A program made the translations under genes and the position numbers. The notes beneath the pieces were generated by a model. That model worked only from the letters and a program-made list of their open reading frames with translations. It had not been told where the DNA came from and did no database searches. Positions 450 to 43,897 of a DNA stretch of 64,000 bases are shown here, piece after piece (within the stretch, counting starts at the first letter, position 1; the number at the start of each line of letters is the position of its first letter). Where the stretch lies: IMG/VR virus record IMGVR_UViG_3300032236_000971, positions 43,890 to 107,889 of that record. One strand, 5' to 3'. Origin of the DNA: a virus.

Positions 450-1158
450 TGCTAAAATTATTGCTATCACACAACCATTGTTGCATAAAGGTGGTGATGT
501 TATCTATGACGAATCTGGATTTATTATTGGCGAGGCTGATGGACCAAAACTTACTGTAGATGAGTTTATTGCTTATGTTGCTCGTGTATCTAATCCATCA
601 AACCAAAACAACACATTGACTGCACCAAAGCTGCTTCGTTATCTAGCCAAGCATAAGCACTGGTCGCCATTTGAGATGGTCAATGTGGTTATGGAAATAA
701 ATACTACTAGAGACATTGGTCGTCAGATCCTTCGTCACCGTTCCTTTACCTTTCAGGAGTTTAGTCAGCGCTATGCGGATCCAACCAAAGATATGGGTTT
801 CGTCACTCGTGCCGCCCGTTTGCAAGATACAGCCAATCGCCAGAATTCCATCGAAACTACCGATGAAATACTACAGCAAAAGTGGACTGAGTATCAAGAC
901 TTCTTGTCGCAACACTCACAGCAAGTTTACCAGTGGGCTATCAATAACGGTATAGCAAAGGAGCAAGCACGTGCGGTATTACCTGAAGGACTTATTCTTA
1001 GCCGCATGTATATGGCTGGCAGTCTTCGCTCTTGGATTCATTATTGCCAACTGAGGTCTGGCGTTGAGACTCAGAAAGAGCATCGCGAGATTGCTATTGA
1101 TGCTTGGTATCAGATTATCGAGCATTTCCCATCTCTTAAAGATGCCCTCGATCTATAA
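442..1158 (+). CDS. thyX: FAD-dependent thymidylate synthase
   Basis: HWSPFE and RQILRHRSFTFQEFSQRY (RHRx7S ThyX motif); KEQARAVLP. Confidence 0.97.
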   Translation: MNNAKIIAITQPLLHKGGDVIYDESGFIIGEADGPKLTVDEFIAYVARVSNPSNQNNTLTAPKLLRYLAKHKHWSPFEMVNVVMEINTTRDIGRQILRHRSFTFQEFSQRYADPTKDMGFVTRAARLQDTANRQNSIETTDEILQQKWTEYQDFLSQHSQQVYQWAINNGIAKEQARAVLPEGLILSRMYMAGSLRSWIHYCQLRSGVETQKEHREIAIDAWYQIIEHFPSLKDALDL

Positions 1159-1161
1159 ATA
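1154..1161 (+). promoter_or_regulatory. T4-type late promoter TATAAATA upstream of the csgF operon
   Basis: Exact TATAAATA about 20 nt before the ATG at 1182, with a GGAG RBS in between. Confidence 0.8.
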
Positions 1162-1181
1162 GCGGGTAATGGAGATTAAAG

Positions 1182-1619
1182 ATGAAGAAATTAGCGTTTA
1201 TACTATGCCTAATTTCTTCTGCTTCTTTTGCTACTGAAGTTCAATTTGGGTTTAAGAGTCCGTCGTTTAACGGTAATGGTTACTCTTCTCATGTACTTAC
1301 TATTGAGAATCTCGAAGCAACAAGAAAACAGAAGATATTAGACGACGCAAAGGCAGCGGCTGAGAAGGCAGCTTCCGATGCTAAGAACACGAACCTTGCT
1401 AAGTTTTTAAACAACTTAGAGAGCCGTATTTACGCTACTATTTCTCAGAACATTGCTTCAGAGCTATTTAAGTCTGGTGGAGCTACTACGGGAGCGTTTG
1501 ATATTCAGGGTAATCATTTACAGTGGGTATCAGACGGTTCAACTATAACATTAAACATTACAGATCCGGGTGGAAGTGTGACGCAGGTGGTTGTTCCTTA
1601 TGGGAGTTTAGCATGGTAA
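1182..1619 (+). CDS. csgF: Curli assembly component CsgF-like protein
   Basis: Signal peptide, then TEVQFGFKSPSFNGNG (like the CsgF N-terminal NPxFGG segment); FLNNLESRIYATIS; C-terminal ITDPGGSVTQVVVP; adjacent to csgG. Confidence 0.85.
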   Translation: MKKLAFILCLISSASFATEVQFGFKSPSFNGNGYSSHVLTIENLEATRKQKILDDAKAAAEKAASDAKNTNLAKFLNNLESRIYATISQNIASELFKSGGATTGAFDIQGNHLQWVSDGSTITLNITDPGGSVTQVVVPYGSLAW

Positions 1620-2422
1620 AGTATGCGGCATTAGCATTAGCATTGTTACTTGGTGGGTGCACGGGTAAGCAGGTAACTCAGGCTGAGATTGAAAAGCAGA
1701 TTGACGAGCCAGAGATCATTACGCACAAGCGTTTTAATGAGATAGTAAACATCACCCCTCCAGCCGAAGATCCTATTCCTATTGCTGTTTATCGCTTTCA
1801 GGATCTAACAGGTCAACGTAAGCCTAATAATAATTATGCTTCACTTAGCTCGGCAGTAACACAGGGCGCTGAAGTATTCCTTATTAAGGCATTAAAGGAT
1901 GCAGGTAACGGTAAGTGGTTCCTTCCAGTTGAGCGTGTAGGACTTGAAAACCTAGTAAAGGAACGTCAGCTTATCCGTTCACAAAGAGAAACATATGAAA
2001 AGGATCAGGCAAAGCCTCTAGTTCCTTTAATTGTAGCAGGGAGTATGATTGATGGCGGTATTGTGGGATATGATACTGATATTGGGACTGGTGGTATTGG
2101 CGCTCGTTTTCTTGGTATTGGAGCCGATCAACAGTATAGAAAAGACGAAATCACGGTCATGGTCCGATTGATATCTGTAAATACAGGTGAAATACTACTA
2201 TCTACAGGGGCTACTAAAACAATTTATTCTACTGGTACTAATTTAAATGTATTGAAGTTTGTTGATGCTGGTACTAAGTCAGTAGAGTTTGAAGCTGGTT
2301 CGTCTATTAATGAACCTACTACCTATGCTGTAAGAATTGCTATTGAAGCAGCGATTGTTGATATGATTAAAGAGGGCGCAAAGAAGAAAATATGGTCGTT
2401 TAAAAAGGAAAAAAAGAAATGA
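1613..2422 (+). CDS. csgG: Curli secretion channel lipoprotein CsgG/HfaB family
   Basis: Lipobox LLLGG-C after ATG 1613 (RBS GGAG); IAVYRFQDLTGQRKP, SSAVTQGA, WFLPVERVGLENLVKERQLIR, GGIVGYD motifs. Confidence 0.93.
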   Translation: MVKYAALALALLLGGCTGKQVTQAEIEKQIDEPEIITHKRFNEIVNITPPAEDPIPIAVYRFQDLTGQRKPNNNYASLSSAVTQGAEVFLIKALKDAGNGKWFLPVERVGLENLVKERQLIRSQRETYEKDQAKPLVPLIVAGSMIDGGIVGYDTDIGTGGIGARFLGIGADQQYRKDEITVMVRLISVNTGEILLSTGATKTIYSTGTNLNVLKFVDAGTKSVEFEAGSSINEPTTYAVRIAIEAAIVDMIKEGAKKKIWSFKKEKKK

Positions 2423-3096
2423 AACTAGTAGCAAGGATGATCGCGTTTTTGACATTCTTGGTTATGATTCAGTATGCGCATGCGGGAAGTAATAATAGTA
2501 TCTATATTGATCAAATTGGTGATGGTTCTAATATAACTTTGACGCAAACTGGTAGTGGAAACGGAATCGGTTCATCATCAAATCGATCTTCGTTTAATGG
2601 CAATAACTTAACGGTAACAGTATCTCAAATAGGTAATCAAAATAACCAACTAATCAACGTGGTTGGTGATGGTGTAACATTGAATTCAACTATCACTGGA
2701 AATACGAACCAGGTTGATATTGATTGTACATCTTGTACGGCTTCGTCTATAACTAGTTCGGTAACAGGTAGCAGTAACCTTGTTACTATAACTAATGAGA
2801 ATTTAAACAATACAGCTTTAACAATTGAATCTGATAATAACACTGTAACATTAACTAATAATTCCACAGCGGTTGCTGGCGTGAATAATGTCATCAATAT
2901 CTCTGGGGGTAACGGTAACCAATTGATTTTAAGTCAGACTGGTCCAGCTGGCGCTCTTGGTCACAAAGTTGATTTAGCAGTAACTGGTGCACTTAATAAT
3001 GTTCAAATAGGACAAGGTGGATCAGTTGACTCAGTCGTTAATAGTACGATCACTGGCTCTAGCAACACTCTTATTATTAAGTCTAACCACAACTAA
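2419..3096 (+). CDS. Secreted curlin-like (CsgA/CsgB-type) repeat protein
   Basis: Signal peptide; N/G/S/T-rich repeats such as NSIYIDQIGDGSNITLTQTGSGN and TVSQIGNQN (QxGxxN); one CxxC. Confidence 0.75.
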   Translation: MKLVARMIAFLTFLVMIQYAHAGSNNSIYIDQIGDGSNITLTQTGSGNGIGSSSNRSSFNGNNLTVTVSQIGNQNNQLINVVGDGVTLNSTITGNTNQVDIDCTSCTASSITSSVTGSSNLVTITNENLNNTALTIESDNNTVTLTNNSTAVAGVNNVINISGGNGNQLILSQTGPAGALGHKVDLAVTGALNNVQIGQGGSVDSVVNSTITGSSNTLIIKSNHN

Positions 3097-4132
3097 CGCT
3101 GAGGTTGGCAAGGTCACAGAGCAATCTGGACCTACTGAAATACGCAGAGATAAGAATTCTTTACCTAGCTCTATCTCTTCTGAGGTGGAGATGAACGACG
3201 TTATAACTACAGCTAATGCAAAAGCTGGTATTACGTTTAAAGACGATACAAAGGTACAGATAACCGAGCAGAGTAAACTTGTTATTGATACGTTTGTTTA
3301 TGATGGTGAAAAGAAAACGGGTAAGCTCGGTATAAAAATGGCGCTTGGCACTATTAAGTACGCCAGTGGCCAAATAGCAAAGAATGATCCAACTCAGGTT
3401 ATGGTTGAAACGCCAACAGCAACGATTGGTGTAAGAGGCACAGATTTTTCAGGAACTGTAGATGAAACAGGAAGATCAACTATTATATTGCTACCTTCTT
3501 GCCCAAGCGGCTGGAAGAATATTGATCGCGATTGTGTCACTGGGAATATTAGCGTTACTACTATCATGGGTACTGTCTGGTTAACTAAACCGTTTGAGTC
3601 AGTTACAGTTAATACAACTATCGCTCAACCTAAGTCAGCTATACTAAATCTTAGTTTAGATCAAATCAATAATATGCTGATCGTTACGCCGCCTAAAGAA
3701 GTAAGGGAAGAAAGAACTAGAACACAAACTAAAGCATTTAACTTCCTCGATCAAAACTTTCTTGATAAAGATTTATTAAAATATGATGGCCTTGATAATA
3801 ATGCGTTGGATAAACCGAATGTATTAGATAGAAACGCATTAGATAGTGATTACCTAATGAACGCATTAGACGTTATAGCTAATCAGTTTCTTAGTAACGA
3901 GCTTGATCAATATAACGCACTGCTGCCTAAATACGATAAATCAACTGGTTTGAAATTTACTGTTGATAGTGAAGTTTTAAATTTATATCGTGAAACAGTA
4001 AGTAACTACTATGATATCAATTTAAATATCTATAGAAGTTTAACACTGAATCTTACTCAAGATAATTTGACAATTAAACAATTAGTAAATGGACCTGGTA
4101 CTACTACGATAACAATAAAGCAGGGCAACTGA
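3017..4132 (+). CDS. Exported FecR-domain protein
   Basis: Hydrophobic N-terminus; FKDDTKVQITEQSKLVID and VETPTATIGVRGTDF FecR motifs. Confidence 0.88.
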   Translation: MDQLTQSLIVRSLALATLLLLSLTTTNAEVGKVTEQSGPTEIRRDKNSLPSSISSEVEMNDVITTANAKAGITFKDDTKVQITEQSKLVIDTFVYDGEKKTGKLGIKMALGTIKYASGQIAKNDPTQVMVETPTATIGVRGTDFSGTVDETGRSTIILLPSCPSGWKNIDRDCVTGNISVTTIMGTVWLTKPFESVTVNTTIAQPKSAILNLSLDQINNMLIVTPPKEVREERTRTQTKAFNFLDQNFLDKDLLKYDGLDNNALDKPNVLDRNALDSDYLMNALDVIANQFLSNELDQYNALLPKYDKSTGLKFTVDSEVLNLYRETVSNYYDINLNIYRSLTLNLTQDNLTIKQLVNGPGTTTITIKQGN

Positions 4133-4395
4133 TGAAAACATTACTCGCACTTCTATTAATGACAACACCTGCTTTCTCGCAGACAGTAAATAATGCAACC
4201 GTGAATTTACAAGGAGCTAATCAAAGTGTTAGTATTACTCAGTTTGGCAGTGATAAATCTGCTACCGTTACTTTTAATGGGTATGGGCTTAATGCAATTA
4301 TCAGTCAATCGGGTTCTAATCCTCAGTCTTTTTCTTTATCTGTTACTTGTACTAGCTCTTGTCCTACTTCACCTTACATCATTAACCAATACTGA
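4132..4395 (+). CDS. Small secreted curlin-like protein
   Basis: Signal peptide; NLQGANQSVSITQFGS and IISQSGSN repeats; C-terminal CTSSC. Confidence 0.65.
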   Translation: MKTLLALLLMTTPAFSQTVNNATVNLQGANQSVSITQFGSDKSATVTFNGYGLNAIISQSGSNPQSFSLSVTCTSSCPTSPYIINQY

Positions 4396-6452
4396 TGGAA
4401 ACGCTAGGCAAATATCTTACAAGCACATGGGCAGCTGCTATCAGCGCCTGTCTCCTGTTGATATTGTATGTAATCAATCCAAGCTTCATCCAAACACTAC
4501 AATTGAAGACATTCGATTACCTGATAACTTCGCTTGACAAAAAGCAATCAGAAGAGATTGTAATTGTTAACTTTGGCGAAAAGTCAGTAAAGCAATTTGG
4601 TCAGTGGCCATTTGATCGCCGAGATATTGCTAAGACAATTGAAAAGCTTAAAGAACACGAAGCAGCCGTTATAGTTGCTCCTATATTATTTTCTGAAAAA
4701 GACAGAGCAGGTGGTGATGATGAATTGGCTAATAGTCTCGGAGGTGTTGTTATTGCTCAAACACCTACTACGCAAAATGTTCCACCTGACGCTGTACGTC
4801 GTGGGTTTGCTGCTATTGGTCCTGTTGATCCTATCAGCTATGTCTATCGTTGGAATGGTGGATTACGCCCTATTAATAAGCTGGCAGAATCTGCTGAAGG
4901 AGTCGGCGTTCTCGCCACTATCCCTGAAATCGATGGCGTTGTCCGTCGTGTCCCTCTACTTGTTAATATTGCAGGTAATCTTTATCCATCATTACCTCTT
5001 GAAACCCTTCGTGTCGCTGCTGGTGATCCTTCCTATCAAATTAAAACAGGTGATGCTGGGCTTGAGTTTGTGCGCATACCTGCTTTTCCTGCTGTTCCTG
5101 TCGACGAAAGAGGGCGTGTTTGGGCAACATGGAATACAAAGTTCGAAGAGGTAGAAGCAACGGAAATTGATGACAGAGTCAAAGGTAAGATAGTAGTTCT
5201 TGGCTTGACTATTGAAGGCGTTGGCGGTATAATCAGTACTGCAATGGGTGAAAAATGGGCGCATTCGATACAGGCTAGTACGCTTCAAACACTTATTGAT
5301 GGAACTTCTATTTCTCGCCTATCCGTAGCAAGGCTATTAGAAGGAATACTAATACTAGGAATACTGCTCCTATTTCTGTATAGCGTTCCAAAAGTGTCTG
5401 TAAAGATGACAGTTCCATTTTATGCTCTCTTTATTGCGAGTATATCTTATGGCTCGTATTATTTATTTCAAACCCAGCTTCAGCTGTGGGATCCTAGCTA
5501 TCTAATTCTATCTGGATCAATACTATTTGCTCACCTAATATTCAATAACTTTGCTCGTGAGTTTAGATTAAAGCAACAGATCAAGAAGCAATTTGGTACA
5601 TACTTATCGCCAGCATTAGTTGAAAAACTTCAAAAGAACCCTGAATTACTTAAATTGGGAGGAGAGACCCGTGAGTTATCGATCATGTTCACAGACGTTC
5701 GCGGCTTTACTAATATTAGTGAGCATTATGGAGCTGACGTACAAGGTCTTACTCAAATAATGAATCGCTATATGACAGCGATGACTGCTAAGATTATTCA
5801 GAACGAGGGCACACTAGATAAGTATATCGGTGACGCTCAGATGGCATTTTGGAATGCGCCACTTGATGATAAAGAACACGCTAAACATGCAGTTAAAACA
5901 GCATTGGAGATGTTAGATGACCTCAAAAGATTTAACACCGAGATTTTGGCTGAAGGTATCCCTGCCTTTGGTATGGGTCTTGGCATTAATACAGGTAGTG
6001 TCGTTGTGGGGAACATGGGATCTTCTCAGCGTTTTGATTACACCTGTCTTGGCGATTCTGTTAACCTGGCAAGTCGTTTGGAAGGACAATCAAAACCATA
6101 CCATGTGAAAATGGTTATTGGTCCTGAAACATATGAGTATGTTAAGGATGAATATCTATGCTTAGAGCTTGATTGTCTCGCTGTTAAGGGTAAGGCAATA
6201 GGTGTTAAAATATACACTATTGTTAATAAGAATGGTTTGAATATTGCAGCTTCGCGTTCGCATGCACAGTTTTTAGAATACTATCGTCAGATGGCATGGG
6301 GTAAAGCTCTTGAGTATATTCCTTACATAGAAAGAGCTTTTGAAGGTGAAATGAAAGAATACTATAAGATGATGGCTGAACGTATTGAAGAGTATAAAGT
6401 TAATCCGTTACCAAAAGATTGGGATGGCGTATATAGGACAAACTCAAAATGA
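4395..6452 (+). CDS. CHASE2-domain membrane class III adenylate cyclase
   Basis: N-terminal TM; CHASE2 (GQWPFDR, DGVVRRVPL, YPSLPLE); three TMs; catalytic FTDVRGFT, DKYIGDAQMAFW, FDYTCLGDSVNLASRLEG, VKGK. Confidence 0.95.
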   Translation: METLGKYLTSTWAAAISACLLLILYVINPSFIQTLQLKTFDYLITSLDKKQSEEIVIVNFGEKSVKQFGQWPFDRRDIAKTIEKLKEHEAAVIVAPILFSEKDRAGGDDELANSLGGVVIAQTPTTQNVPPDAVRRGFAAIGPVDPISYVYRWNGGLRPINKLAESAEGVGVLATIPEIDGVVRRVPLLVNIAGNLYPSLPLETLRVAAGDPSYQIKTGDAGLEFVRIPAFPAVPVDERGRVWATWNTKFEEVEATEIDDRVKGKIVVLGLTIEGVGGIISTAMGEKWAHSIQASTLQTLIDGTSISRLSVARLLEGILILGILLLFLYSVPKVSVKMTVPFYALFIASISYGSYYLFQTQLQLWDPSYLILSGSILFAHLIFNNFAREFRLKQQIKKQFGTYLSPALVEKLQKNPELLKLGGETRELSIMFTDVRGFTNISEHYGADVQGLTQIMNRYMTAMTAKIIQNEGTLDKYIGDAQMAFWNAPLDDKEHAKHAVKTALEMLDDLKRFNTEILAEGIPAFGMGLGINTGSVVVGNMGSSQRFDYTCLGDSVNLASRLEGQSKPYHVKMVIGPETYEYVKDEYLCLELDCLAVKGKAIGVKIYTIVNKNGLNIAASRSHAQFLEYYRQMAWGKALEYIPYIERAFEGEMKEYYKMMAERIEEYKVNPLPKDWDGVYRTNSK

Positions 6453-7150
6453 TTTCATTTGTAATACCTTGCTATAACGAAGAAGCACATATTAAAGATT
6501 GTATTCGCTCTATCAGAAAACATATATGGTATATACCTTATGAAATTATTGTAGTTGATAATAACTGTACAGATAGAACTGCTGAAATTGCGGAAGAAGA
6601 GCTTGCGAAAGTTGTTAAAGAAACACGTAAGGGTGTTGTATTTGCAAGACAAGCTGGTTACGAAGCTGCAACTGGTTGGCTGATTGCTAATATCGATGCT
6701 GATTCTAAGATAACCGATGGATGGGTTTGGGAAGCAATGAGTATGTTATCAAACCATGATACTGTCGCAGTAACTGGTCCATTAGAATACGAAGGTGCTG
6801 GTTTAGGTTTACGTATAATGACGAAGCTGTATTACCTGCTTGCTAAGTTTAGTAACGATCATATTGGCGTGTTTCTTCAAGGAGGCAACTGCATGATCAA
6901 GAAGAAAGCTTTAGATGAAGTTGGTGGTTACGATGGTACTATTATTTTCTACGGCGAAGATACGATGACTGCAAAACGCATACAGCACCTCGGTAAAGTT
7001 GTATTCAATATGTATATGGTAACAACAACGTCACCAAGAAGGCTTAAAGAGCAAGGCGTCATAAAAACTACATGGTTATATCTTACTAATTATTTTTCTG
7101 TGACTTTCAAAAATAAATCTACAACTAACGACTATAAGGATTTTAGATGA
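6449..7150 (+). CDS. Glycosyltransferase family 2
   Basis: SFVIPCYNEE, IIVVDNNCTD, NIDAD (DxD), GED, SPRR motifs. Confidence 0.92.
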   Translation: MISFVIPCYNEEAHIKDCIRSIRKHIWYIPYEIIVVDNNCTDRTAEIAEEELAKVVKETRKGVVFARQAGYEAATGWLIANIDADSKITDGWVWEAMSMLSNHDTVAVTGPLEYEGAGLGLRIMTKLYYLLAKFSNDHIGVFLQGGNCMIKKKALDEVGGYDGTIIFYGEDTMTAKRIQHLGKVVFNMYMVTTTSPRRLKEQGVIKTTWLYLTNYFSVTFKNKSTTNDYKDFR

Positions 7151-7875
7151 AGTCATACAAAACAGTATTCATATCAGATTTACATCTGGGTACAAAAATG
7201 AGTCAAGCAAATAAGCTGCTTGATTTTATGAAAACATTCGAATGTGAAAAGATATATCTAGTAGGCGATATTGTTGATTGTTGGGCTATGTCAAGAAAAA
7301 TGATATGGTCTCAATTTCATAATGACGTAATTCAAAAGCTACTCCGTAGAGCTAGAAAAGGTACTGAAATTGTTTATATTCCCGGAAATCACGATGACGT
7401 TATGCGCAACTATTGTGATAACGAATTTGGTCATATTATCATGGTTAGGGAAGCCGTACATGTGGGAGTCGATGGCAGGATATATCTTGTTACTCATGGT
7501 GATCAGTTTGATGTTGTAATTCGTAATGCCGAATGGCTTGCTCACCTTGGCGGCTGGGCATATGACCTTAGTATAAACATGAGTCGTTTCATCAATAAAA
7601 TTAGGACCGTGTTTGGTTTAAAATACTGGTCATTGTCAGCTTATCTAAAGAACACAGTAAAAGAATCTGTAAACTTTATCGGTAATTATGAAGAAACACT
7701 ATCGAAGTATGTGAAAGGTAAGAAGCTAGATGGAATTATATGCGGTCATATTCATCATGCTAACATTCGTGATATTGGCGGTATTAGATATATGAACTGC
7801 GGCGATTGGGTAGAGTCATGTACCGCCTTAGTAGAAAACCATGACGGTACATTTGAAATAGTTAAGTGGGTATAA
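7147..7875 (+). CDS. plcP: PlcP-like phospholipase C / LpxH-family metallophosphoesterase
   Basis: ISDLHLG, LVGDIVD, HNDVIQKLLRRARKG, PGNHD, HGDQFD, YWSLS, CGHIH, NCGDWVESCTA; has GNHD rather than the GNRD of LpxH. Confidence 0.8.
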   Translation: MKSYKTVFISDLHLGTKMSQANKLLDFMKTFECEKIYLVGDIVDCWAMSRKMIWSQFHNDVIQKLLRRARKGTEIVYIPGNHDDVMRNYCDNEFGHIIMVREAVHVGVDGRIYLVTHGDQFDVVIRNAEWLAHLGGWAYDLSINMSRFINKIRTVFGLKYWSLSAYLKNTVKESVNFIGNYEETLSKYVKGKKLDGIICGHIHHANIRDIGGIRYMNCGDWVESCTALVENHDGTFEIVKWV

Positions 7876-13725: not shown

Positions 13726-13803
13726 GCCCCAGTAGGCCAACAGGTTAGAGTCAACGGACTTAAAATCCGTACAGTGTCGGTTCGAATCCGACTTGGGGCA
13801 CCA
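13726..13803 (+). tRNA. tRNA-Leu(TAA) with short variable loop
   Basis: Acceptor GCCCCAG/TTGGGGC; anticodon arm ACGGA-CTTAAAA-TCCGT; T arm GTCGG-TTCGAAT-CCGAC; encoded CCA. Confidence 0.93.
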
Positions 13804-14298: not shown

Positions 14299-14502
14299 AT
14301 GAAAGAAAATACCCTCATCTTAGTTAAAACTATAACGTATAGGGTAACATCTAGCCTAGCAACGTTTATCATTGCTTGGTTAGCTACTGGTTCATATACA
14401 ACTGGTGGTATTGTAGCGATTTCTCGTGGATTGTTTGGTACTGTTTGGTACGCAGTTCACGAGAAAATTTGGTCAGTGATTAAAAAGAATAAGTGCTGGT
14501 AG
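14299..14502 (+). CDS. Small membrane protein (DUF2061-like)
   Basis: VKTITYRV...WYAVHEKIW pattern; last codons overlap the tRNA 5' end. Confidence 0.6.
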   Translation: MKENTLILVKTITYRVTSSLATFIIAWLATGSYTTGGIVAISRGLFGTVWYAVHEKIWSVIKKNKCW

Positions 14503-14568
14503 CTTAGTGGCCAAAGCCGACCGCTCATAACGGTCCTATCGGGGGTTCGAGTCCCTCCCGGCACACCA
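14493..14568 (+). tRNA. tRNA with CAT anticodon, probably tRNA-Ile2 (lysidine-modified, reads ATA)
   Basis: Acceptor GTGCTGG/CCGGCAC with C4-G69; anticodon arm GACCG-CTCATAA-CGGTC resembles alphaproteobacterial Ile2; lacks initiator features; encoded CCA. Confidence 0.85.
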
Positions 14569-29896: not shown

Positions 29897-29930
29897 TTGA
29901 CTTTCAGTAGATGTTCCGCTATACTAAATA
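29897..29930 (+). promoter_or_regulatory. Composite sigma70 / late-like promoter for tmRNA
   Basis: TTGACT-N17-TATACT running into ACTAAATA. Confidence 0.75.
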
Positions 29931-29931
29931 T

Positions 29932-30200
29932 ATTGCTTGGTTGTTGAGGCGTTAGGAATAAACGATCCAGACTGGGGGGCAGTACCCCACGCCTCCACCA
30001 TAAGCAGATTGTGTCACACTTTATTGAGGTTGACGACCTCAAGTCTGCTTTTGATGGGGGCGAAATAGGCTCGATGGGTTGTAGTAAAGTTACGATTAGA
30101 CTAAGTAAACTCGTAAATGCAAACGATAACAATGCATCTCGTTTGGCTCTAGCAGCCTAACATGAGTCCGGTGGGAACTTGGAAACAGAATCCCACCACC
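29932..30200 (+). ncRNA. ssrA: Circularly permuted two-piece tmRNA (alphaproteobacterial type); ends approximate
   Basis: Acceptor piece ends GGGGGGCAGTACCCCACGCCTCCACCA at 30000; 55 nt intervening segment; coding piece starts GGGGGCGAAATAGG at 30056; G3-U70 pair; tag ANDNNASRLALAA* at 30119-30160; terminal GGTGGGA/TCCCACC hairpin. Confidence 0.93.
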
Positions 30201-30207
30201 TTTCCAT

Positions 30208-30284
30208 GGTTCCTTAGCTCAGCTGGATAGAGCATCAGACTTCTAATCTGAGGGTCGTTGGTTCGAGTCCAACAGGAATCGCCA
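30208..30284 (+). tRNA. tRNA-Arg(TCT)
   Basis: GGTTCCT/AGGAATC acceptor; TCAGA-CTTCTAA-TCTGA; GTTGG-TTCGAGT-CCAAC; CCA. Confidence 0.96.
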
Positions 30285-42982: not shown

Positions 42983-43897
42983 ATGGCAATGGAAACGTAT
43001 TTTAAAAACTTTAACAAGATACAATATGGTGGCGACACGGTAATTGATATTACAGAGCGTGTTGTTACGTTGAGCAACGTTCAGAAGAACCCTATTGCGT
43101 ATTATCCTTATGATATATCAATGGGCGACCGTCCAGATCAAATTGCATATGATTTATACAAAGACCCATACACAAGCTGGATTCTTTATCTATCCAACGA
43201 CATATTAGACCCGTATTATGATTGGTATTTGAGTCAGGAGCAGTTTAATCAGTTTATTGTTTTCAAATATGGATCATTATCAAACGCAACTCAAAAGATA
43301 GCATATTGGAGAAACGATTGGGTAGACAAGCCTAATATTTCTACATTAGAATATGATTCAGAGATAGTAAACAATCCAGCAAGATTAAAGTATTGGACAC
43401 CAAACTATAACGCATACAACGGTATTATAGATTACTCTAGAGTAAAAGAGGATTGGGTATCTAATACAAACAGAACGGTTGAGTATAATATAGTTTCAGC
43501 AAACCCTAATTTTATACTTGGCGAGTTTGTTGATATTGCGTTCAATGATGAGGATCAAAATACAGGCAGAGGCCAGATTGTTGCGTTTAGCGATTCTGTA
43601 GTTACTATAAATCAAACTATTGGTCATGTTGTTCCAGGAATGGAAGGCACATTACAGTTTTATGAAGGTATTCCATTTTCTACTCTAATAGGCAGGGAAA
43701 GCGGAGCCTTCTCTAGAATTATGTCTGGTCAAGTAACAATGACTAATATATCAAATGATGAAATAGCTTATTGGAAGCCAGTGTCTTATTATGATATGGA
43801 GAATGAAAAGAATGAAGGTAATAAGTTTATTCAGACTCTACAACCTCAGTTTGCACCAAAGTATGTTAAGAATGTTAAAGATCTGTTGAGATTATAA
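42983..43897 (+). CDS. gp53: Baseplate wedge protein gp53
   Basis: YFKNF, GDRPDQIAYDLYKDP..SWI...NDILDPYYDW, YYDMENEKNE. Confidence 0.9.
   Translation: MAMETYFKNFNKIQYGGDTVIDITERVVTLSNVQKNPIAYYPYDISMGDRPDQIAYDLYKDPYTSWILYLSNDILDPYYDWYLSQEQFNQFIVFKYGSLSNATQKIAYWRNDWVDKPNISTLEYDSEIVNNPARLKYWTPNYNAYNGIIDYSRVKEDWVSNTNRTVEYNIVSANPNFILGEFVDIAFNDEDQNTGRGQIVAFSDSVVTINQTIGHVVPGMEGTLQFYEGIPFSTLIGRESGAFSRIMSGQVTMTNISNDEIAYWKPVSYYDMENEKNEGNKFIQTLQPQFAPKYVKNVKDLLRL

Follow-up and report, generated by a model that had tools for sequence, protein, structure and literature searches.

A cluster of six genes in an uncultivated T4-like marine phage encodes the parts of a curli-type export system together with a FecR-domain protein and a CHASE2-containing class III adenylate cyclase. 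The cluster lies in a window of 64,000 nucleotides (positions 43,890 to 107,889 of IMG/VR virus record IMGVR_UViG_3300032236_000971), which is the 3' 64 kb of this 107,889-bp record; CheckV estimates the record to be about 65% complete. It is near certain that the locus belongs to a published viral module comprising a type VIII secretion system (T8SS), FecR and an adenylate cyclase. We suggest that it is made up of two coupled sub-modules, one for curli-type export and one in which FecR, CHASE2 and the cyclase serve in sensing. The contacts between these proteins are ones that we infer, and we put the probability of this reading at roughly 0.5.

The locus and its place among known phage modules

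The six genes are tightly packed on the + strand, downstream of thyX (442-1158). The features are listed below with their positions in the window and lengths in nucleotides (nt) or amino acids (aa).

1154-1161, + strand: late-promoter-like motif TATAAATA, T4-type, 21 nt 5' of the csgF ATG and overlapping the thyX stop codon
1182-1619, + strand: csgF, 145 aa; PF10614 6e-15, 56 bits, above cut-off
1613-2422, + strand: csgG, 269 aa from ATG 1613; PF03783 1.5e-50, 171.9 bits; NCBIfam CsgG 3.4e-49
2419-3096, + strand: curA, 225 aa, predicted to be exported, curlin-like; Curlin_rpt 2e-4
3017/3026-4132, + strand: fecR, 371 aa from GTG 3017; PF04773 1.5e-11, 45 bits
4132-4395, + strand: curB, 87 aa, predicted to be exported, curlin-like; NCBIfam CsgB 2.9e-5
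4395-6452, + strand: CHASE2/class III cyclase, 685 aa; PF05226 1.2e-38, PF00211 (Guanylate_cyc) 5.9e-21

Successive genes from csgF to the cyclase overlap by 7, 4, about 70-80, 1 and 1 nt. The open reading frames (ORFs) and Pfam scores confirm all six genes of the original prediction, intact and in the order that it gave. Its suggestion that such a complete module had no known functional description in a phage was wrong, because the module has been published and is annotated in two cultured phages. A blastn search with the locus led to these phages, Pelagibacter phage HTVC008M and Methylophilales phage Melnitz, and in their GenBank records all six genes are annotated in this order. Among cultured phages the cyclase was found only in these two, at 41-44% identity. 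The locus is a new, divergent copy of the pelagiphage-type module.

The module is known from phages of SAR11 and OM43 bacteria, HTVC008M and Melnitz among them. The curli cluster of pelagimyophages was reported by Zaragoza-Solas et al. (2020), who put forward 'sibling capture'. Buchholz et al. (2022) suggested a pore that times lysis and left FecR and the cyclase out of their discussion. The whole set of CsgF, CsgG, CsgA/B, FecR, a second CsgA/B and adenylate cyclase was described as a viral T8SS by Wittmers et al. (2022, PMC9599517). They detected it in pelagiphages of both the myo- and the podo- type, at each of the 65 GOV2 stations and also in metatranscriptomes; in podophages a 'histidine kinase' precedes the module. 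Their trees place the viral proteins nearest to those of Alphaproteobacteria, and they read FecR as an iron-related regulator. CHASE2 is not in their main text; in their supplement it figures as a category of its own, apart from 'Guanylate_cyc'. No link of CHASE2 or of NsrA to the phage module was found in the literature searched.

The export proteins

CsgF carries a signal peptide, followed by VQFGFKSPSFNGNG, a motif read by eye that resembles the CsgG-binding N-terminus of CsgF. The likely start of CsgG is the ATG at 1613, which gives MVKYAALALALLLGGC with the lipobox LLGGC, as read from the sequence. CsgG is predicted to be an outer-membrane lipoprotein pore subunit.

The two curlin-like proteins have weaker Pfam support. 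The Curlin_rpt match to curA has 21.7 bits, barely above the cut-off of 20.7, and the match to curB (0.0019) falls under the Pfam cut-off. An alignment of 35 curA homologues has invariant Q/G/N positions at intervals of about 22-23 aa. Alignment of curB with its homologues reveals two repeats and a C-x3-C end. The curB-type gene is optional among relatives and its product varies in length from 87 to about 640 aa; jackhmmer joins curA, curB and these variable middle genes into a single family.

The AlphaFold2 (AF2) model of curA is all-beta with strand pairs, its mean predicted local distance difference test score (pLDDT) is 87.9 and its predicted template modelling score 0.78. A Foldseek search of the PDB with this model gave no match at E <= 0.001. 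With VIA-align, generic beta-solenoids score best (SufD-like, Z 16.1), followed by Pontibacter CsgA (8c50, Z 15.0, root mean square deviation (rmsd) 8.9) and the E. coli CsgA fibril (8enq, Z 12.7, rmsd 8.5), these CsgA matches standing among many generic beta-helices. The phage curlin profiles also match curlin genes beside csgF-csgG in seven alphaproteobacterial genomes, with E-values down to 6e-36. These profile matches to cellular curlins are the strongest evidence that the phage proteins are probably curlins.

The original prediction noted that csgE was not visible, and this holds across the whole 108-kb record, in which a search with CsgE (PF10627) gave no match. According to the literature, CsgE is absent from alphaproteobacterial systems as well.

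The pore itself could be the purpose of the module, either as a pinholin- or secretin-like channel that times lysis or as an entry for nutrients or cofactors, with the other genes as regulators. Both versions have been proposed in print, lysis by Buchholz et al. and uptake by Zaragoza-Solas and by Wittmers and their colleagues. The missing CsgE gate would fit them, as would the late-promoter-like motif, which is kept in about half of the relatives. A bare pore nevertheless leaves unexplained the two exported curlin-family proteins, which are conserved with the pore and have a confident beta-solenoid model. Furthermore, an outer-membrane pore alone cannot depolarise the inner membrane, and there is no holin or endolysin within the operon. 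We consider it quite unlikely that the pore is the purpose of the module.

The CHASE2 adenylate cyclase

The cyclase comprises a first transmembrane segment (about 11-27), a periplasmic CHASE2 domain (about 28-312), three more transmembrane segments (about 312-390) and a catalytic domain (about 426-609), the transmembrane segments being read by eye. The CHASE2 match (PF05226, 133.6 bits) covers residues 20-327 and lies between the N-terminal segment and the other three.

The catalytic domain aligns with Pseudomonas aeruginosa CyaB (3r5g, E = 1.3e-33), and the motifs FTDVRGFT, DKYIGD, DYT, NLASR and VKGK correspond residue for residue. In this alignment both metal-binding Asp residues are in place, as are the ATP-specifying Lys and Thr and the transition-state Asn and Arg; this bears out the original prediction of an intact catalytic site. 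These residues are invariant, and the catalytic domain nearly so, in 32 phage homologues. The protein is thus predicted to be a class III (IIIb-like) enzyme that makes cyclic AMP (cAMP).

The FecR-domain protein

The likelier start of fecR is the TTG at 3026, behind GGTGGA, rather than the GTG at 3017. Either start lies about 70-80 nt within the 3' end of curA. A similar overlap is found in many relatives (for example L004, L014 and L010), suggesting a conserved arrangement for coupled translation.

All 34 aligned FecR homologues share a signal peptide, a conserved N domain, a variable linker and a small C-terminal beta domain. The N domain, a FecR/anti-sigma-like beta domain at about 30-215, contains TPTATIGVRGTDF and the invariant residues V139-R140-G141-T142 in these homologues. 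It is followed by a linker at about 230-300, which is Leu/Asp-rich here and charged in other lineages, and by the C-terminal beta domain at 313-368. The AF2 model has an overall pLDDT of 73.6, with values above 80 at 30-210, below 55 at 230-300 and about 80 at 313-368. The Leu/Asp-rich linker is real, but it is modelled with low confidence and is variable among relatives.

Foldseek matches the N domain to the periplasmic domains of anti-sigma factors (4m0h, 5e-5; PupR 6ovk, 1.5e-4). The C-terminal domain has a weak match to 5ix9 (E 0.02, TM-score 0.74, rmsd 1.0, 62 columns). This structure, RIN, is a periplasmic plug that retains a type I adhesin in the TolC pore, and the likeness of the modelled domain to it is a lead, not a finding. 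A search of the PDB with the FecR sequence profile gave nothing meaningful. The C-terminus was also considered as a curlin repeat. This was rejected as homology, since comparing its profile with that of the curB family yielded a probability of 13% over 7 columns; the curlin profiles matched no FecR ORF.

Wittmers et al. suggested an iron regulator, and FecR could then act as in the ferric citrate system FecIRA and tie the module to iron limitation. The Pfam FecR domain and the anti-sigma fold of the N domain are in keeping with this. However, the protein starts with a signal peptide, the Pfam domain begins behind it at residue 61, and a cytoplasmic anti-sigma domain is lacking. The operon holds neither an ECF (extracytoplasmic function) sigma factor nor a TonB-dependent transducer, and the cellular counterparts beside CHASE2 cyclases are adhesin-like proteins, not iron regulators. 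FecR is therefore not a FecIRA-type regulator in its make-up, and a role in iron regulation is very improbable. Behind the FecR domain the AF2 model has only the linker and the beta domain of about 55 aa, with no outer-membrane beta-barrel.

Conservation among viral relatives

Relatives of the cyclase are encoded by at least 590 IMG/VR viral contigs. We fetched 80 related loci, of which 46 have at least 7 kb upstream of the cyclase and could be judged. The genes csgG, curA and fecR stand upstream of the cyclase in the same order in all 46; csgF is also visible in 42, and in the remaining 4 it is cut off by the edge of the locus. Whether fecR and the cyclase occur together with csgF and csgG in related phages was a check proposed with the original prediction, and they do so throughout this sample. 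In 22 loci without a second curlin gene, fecR runs up to or into the cyclase gene, its stop abutting or overlapping the cyclase start.

The catalytic domain has a mean pairwise identity of 81%, compared with 51% in CHASE2, 55% in the FecR N domain and 32% in the FecR C part. The corresponding values are 56% for CsgG, 47% for CsgF and 39% for curA. The enzyme is strongly constrained, and variation lies in the exported parts.

One lineage (L053, L055, L058, L061, L062) has about 5 kb inserted between fecR and the cyclase. The insert holds a curlin gene of 306-637 aa and an ORF of 659-819 aa, which is an Amidoligase_2 protein in the three of its four copies that were scanned (L055, L058, L061).

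The module is also present on contigs of 183-285 kb and on contigs of 56-79 kb that CheckV rates as 19-34% complete (L054, L078, L017, L050, L038; G402-G406). Its range thus extends beyond pelagimyophages of about 140-170 kb to phages of jumbo size. Three contigs of 'Bacteroidetes'/Chitinophagales metagenome-assembled genomes (MAGs; L090, L091, L092) encode cyclases 49-55% identical to that of the window. L091 and L092 hold the rest of the phage-type module and the short L090 shows the cyclase only; these contigs are probably phage DNA binned into MAGs.

Cellular relatives and the origin of the parts

The seven alphaproteobacterial curli loci have the csgF-csgG-curlin order of the phage, and the phage profiles match their CsgF, CsgG and curlins. 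Unlike the phage, they have no FecR or CHASE2 cyclase within 7 kb.

The cyclase has its closest cellular relatives in MAGs of Micavibrio, Micropepsaceae and other Alphaproteobacteria, at 32-33% identity along the whole protein. No csg genes were found near these relatives. Several of these cyclase genes lie directly behind a C39-ABC transporter and an HlyD-family protein, a type I secretion pair (L100 5354-14750, L095 3443-9206, L097 5326-11145, L099). The Micavibrio cyclase adjoins a protein of 1052 aa in which a BapA_N prefix is combined with a FecR domain and FG-GAP repeats. Loci of this type suggest an adhesin-linked cAMP system, no description of which was found in the literature searched.

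CHASE2 is present in 64 of 151 sampled alphaproteobacterial genomes. We fetched 20 CHASE2-cyclase loci from Alphaproteobacteria with 6 kb on each side; a FecR-domain ORF is found at eight of them and csg genes at none. In three cases (L169, L172, L173) the FecR protein is a giant of 968-1725 aa with the Pfam FecR domain near its N-terminus, followed by cadherin-like and Ig-like domains, with RTX repeats in two of the three. A fourth giant of 1926 aa stands beside a CHASE2 cyclase (L183), where FecR is seen by the phage-derived profile only. The repeats in the four giants are cadherin-like, Big_9, He_PIG and RTX. Other FecR neighbours of CHASE2 cyclases are FecR-only proteins of 470-545 aa.

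Pairings of FecR with CHASE2 have also been published. Sinorhizobium meliloti NsrA is paired with the cyclases CyaD1, CyaD2 and CyaK (PMC13001267), FecR and a CHASE2 cyclase are paired in cAMP clusters of Campylobacterota (PMC9239204), and in Burkholderia a LysM-FecR protein accompanies a CHASE2 kinase (PMC5192318). The original prediction had drawn an analogy to cellular FecR and CHASE2 cyclase pairs, and both this literature and the eight loci uphold it.

The curli loci lack FecR and CHASE2, and the cyclase loci lack csg genes. It therefore seems that the phage module is chimeric, with one part derived from an alphaproteobacterial curli operon and the other from a FecR/CHASE2-cyclase pair of the kind that cells keep with other surface proteins.

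Possible coupling of FecR to the cyclase

Gene adjacency, translational coupling and the cellular precedents speak for a coupling of FecR with CHASE2, and a complex prediction gives it weak support. In this prediction, of CHASE2 28-312 with FecR 29-235, the median score was 0.36 (runs 0.42, 0.00 and 0.36) and the best control 0.00. The mark for this score is reached by 58 of 80 solved complexes and by 2 of 110 mismatches. Unless the guess was already likely, a pass as low as this one is wrong more often than it is right. The model thus reaches the mark weakly, with one run at 0.00, a contact agreement between runs of at least 0%, a partner pLDDT of at least 68 and no interface.

Several results weigh against a coupled pair, and the first is the complex prediction itself, with its weak score, one run at 0.00 and no interface returned. 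For both parts of FecR, the distance matrices correlate more closely with those of CsgF and CsgG (rho 0.73-0.81) than with that of CHASE2 (0.49-0.58; FecR-CHASE2 0.58 versus FecR-CsgG 0.78). The mirror-tree partial correlation of FecR and CHASE2 is small (0.22) and was not used as support. Four loci (L011, L007, L017, L006) have a CHASE2 72-83% and a catalytic domain 91% identical to those of the window, and their FecR N domains are 45-47%, CsgF 32-35% and curA 33-34% identical; as a whole their csgF-fecR blocks are only 32-50% identical to that of the window. L041 and L044-L046 have the reverse pattern. The cyclase, including CHASE2, thus appears to have been exchanged between lineages independently of FecR, which argues against a tightly co-evolved FecR-CHASE2 pair. 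According to Wittmers et al. (PMC9599517), podophage modules always have FecR and often lack the cyclase, and FecR may therefore act independently of the cyclase.

The remaining points weigh against the overall reading and concern the output, the phenotype and the promoter. A phage-encoded cAMP receptor was considered, and the 108-kb record, about 65% complete, has no cNMP_binding match; a host effector of cAMP is therefore assumed. Buchholz et al. reported that Melnitz-infected cells did not clump. Finally, the window holds six copies of TATAAATA compared with 6.8 expected by chance.

The higher correlation of FecR with CsgF and CsgG, together with the separate history of the cyclase, indicates that FecR belongs evolutionarily to the pore block. 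FecR could accordingly be a secretion accessory, as a gate or adaptor standing in for CsgE or as an anchor or nucleator of the fibre, with the cyclase a separate, exchangeable enzyme that reprogrammes the host through cAMP without input from FecR. The swapping of the cyclase independently of the csgF-fecR block, the podophage modules and the lack of CsgE in the record all favour this role, as does the weak resemblance of the FecR C domain to the RIN plug. It is countered by the 22 loci in which fecR and the cyclase overlap or abut, by the recurrence of FecR-CHASE2 adjacency in unrelated bacteria without curli genes (PMC9239204, PMC5192318) and by the seven alphaproteobacterial curli operons, which do without a FecR gene nearby. 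Recombination has taken place at the fecR/cyclase boundary, the site at which lineages gain or lose the variable second curlin gene. This position fits a portable conserved interface; it fits equally a FecR whose primary job is in secretion. We regard a purely accessory FecR as somewhat unlikely.

The original prediction placed the operon behind a late promoter. The motif is present, and its count in the window is no above-chance figure, so the count itself carries no meaning. Its position, which does carry weight, recurs among relatives. Of 58 related loci, 25 have the form NATAAATA 14-47 nt 5' of the start of csgF, HTVC008M among them, and 4 more have it inside the first 31 nt of the called (longest) csgF ORF. 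The loci that bear it include ones in which CsgF is only 34% identical. It is reasonable to infer that TATAAATA may drive late expression of the operon. Scans for sigma-70 promoters and terminators were at chance level.

A model for the module

Under the proposed reading of two coupled sub-modules, the operon would be expressed late in infection. The CsgG lipoprotein would form an outer-membrane channel with CsgF as its cap, and the beta-solenoid proteins CurA and CurB would be exported through it and assemble, possibly as fibres, on the surface of the infected cell. The FecR protein in the periplasm would contact and modulate the CHASE2 domain of the inner-membrane cyclase, which would make cAMP in the cytoplasm; both the signal and the target of cAMP are presumed. 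FecR is tied to the pore and fibre block, and the cyclase would therefore report the state of the surface structure.

A fuller version of this model takes FecR and CHASE2 as a general adaptor that reports the state of a fibre or adhesin threaded through a pore to a cyclic nucleotide. Bacteria would attach the adaptor to type I adhesins or outer-membrane barrels, and phages would have re-wired it to the curli pore. The infected cell could then sense fibre assembly, cell contact or phage attack and answer with late cAMP. In the original prediction the CsgG pore would likewise take the place of a beta-barrel receptor, and a signal would pass from the fibre by way of the pore to FecR and on to CHASE2. 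We consider this complete chain from fibre to cAMP unlikely.

The gene content, the intact motifs, the conserved order and the cellular FecR-CHASE2 precedents are direct observations. Trans-envelope signalling is a plausible reading of the module and one not made in the literature searched. That literature is sharpened by the CHASE2/FecR reading, the chimeric origin, the parallel to adhesins and type I secretion and the mosaicism of the cyclase, all of which are computational.

Few auxiliary gene clusters of marine phages are as widespread as this module, which gives hosts without curli a complete secretion system and a second-messenger enzyme. FecR as a partner of CHASE2, rather than an iron regulator, together with the chimera finding provides a concrete and testable wiring diagram. 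If this is true, a virus supplies its host with a new signalling path from envelope to cytoplasm, and the module could throw light on CHASE2.

Neighbouring genes

A GT2 glycosyltransferase and an LpxH-like metallophosphoesterase follow 3' of the cyclase (window 6449-7875), joined by ATGA overlaps. The metallophosphoesterase (7147-7875) was considered as a cAMP phosphodiesterase that would complete the pathway and was rejected, its best matches being to LpxH only (NCBIfam 7e-16; PDB 5b49 2.7e-7). Among 78 related loci such a gene is near the cyclase in just 7, and in one of these (L045) it separates fecR from the second curlin gene.

The window also contains a permuted two-piece tmRNA gene with the tag ANDNNASRLALAA, overlapping tRNA-Arg(tct) (29908-30284). 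tRNA-Leu(taa) and tRNA-Met lie 5' of it (13726-13803 and 14493-14568). A two-piece tmRNA is present in Melnitz too.

Comparison with known systems

The modules of HTVC008M and Melnitz agree with that of the window in gene content and order, in being carried by a T4-like marine phage and in lying between replication and structural genes. Melnitz also has thyX upstream, as does the phage of the window, and CsgE, CsgC and CsgD are absent from all three. The window differs from the two isolates in sequence (CsgG is 46-53% identical, and the cyclase 41-44% as given above) and in the second curlin gene, which encodes 87 aa in the window, 341 aa in Melnitz and 441 aa in HTVC008M.

The FecIRA, Fox and Pup anti-sigma factors have the fold of their periplasmic domain in common with the phage FecR (4m0h, 6ovk). 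FoxR cleaves itself at a GT site (PMC11637429), and the phage protein has an invariant GT in its VRGT motif, a likeness at the level of a residue pair. These systems have a cytoplasmic anti-sigma domain, an ECF sigma factor and a TonB-dependent transducer, whereas the phage module has none of these and its output is a cyclase.

The cellular FecR/CHASE2 pairs (NsrA, Campylobacterota and the Micavibrio type) share with the phage an exported FecR protein whose gene adjoins that of a CHASE2 class III cyclase. In the phage module, by contrast, neither a phosphodiesterase nor a TPR partner was identified. Cellular FecR domains belong to an outer-membrane beta-barrel protein or to giant RTX, cadherin or FG-GAP adhesins exported by type I secretion, whereas that of the phage stands alone in a protein of 371 aa beside a type VIII system.

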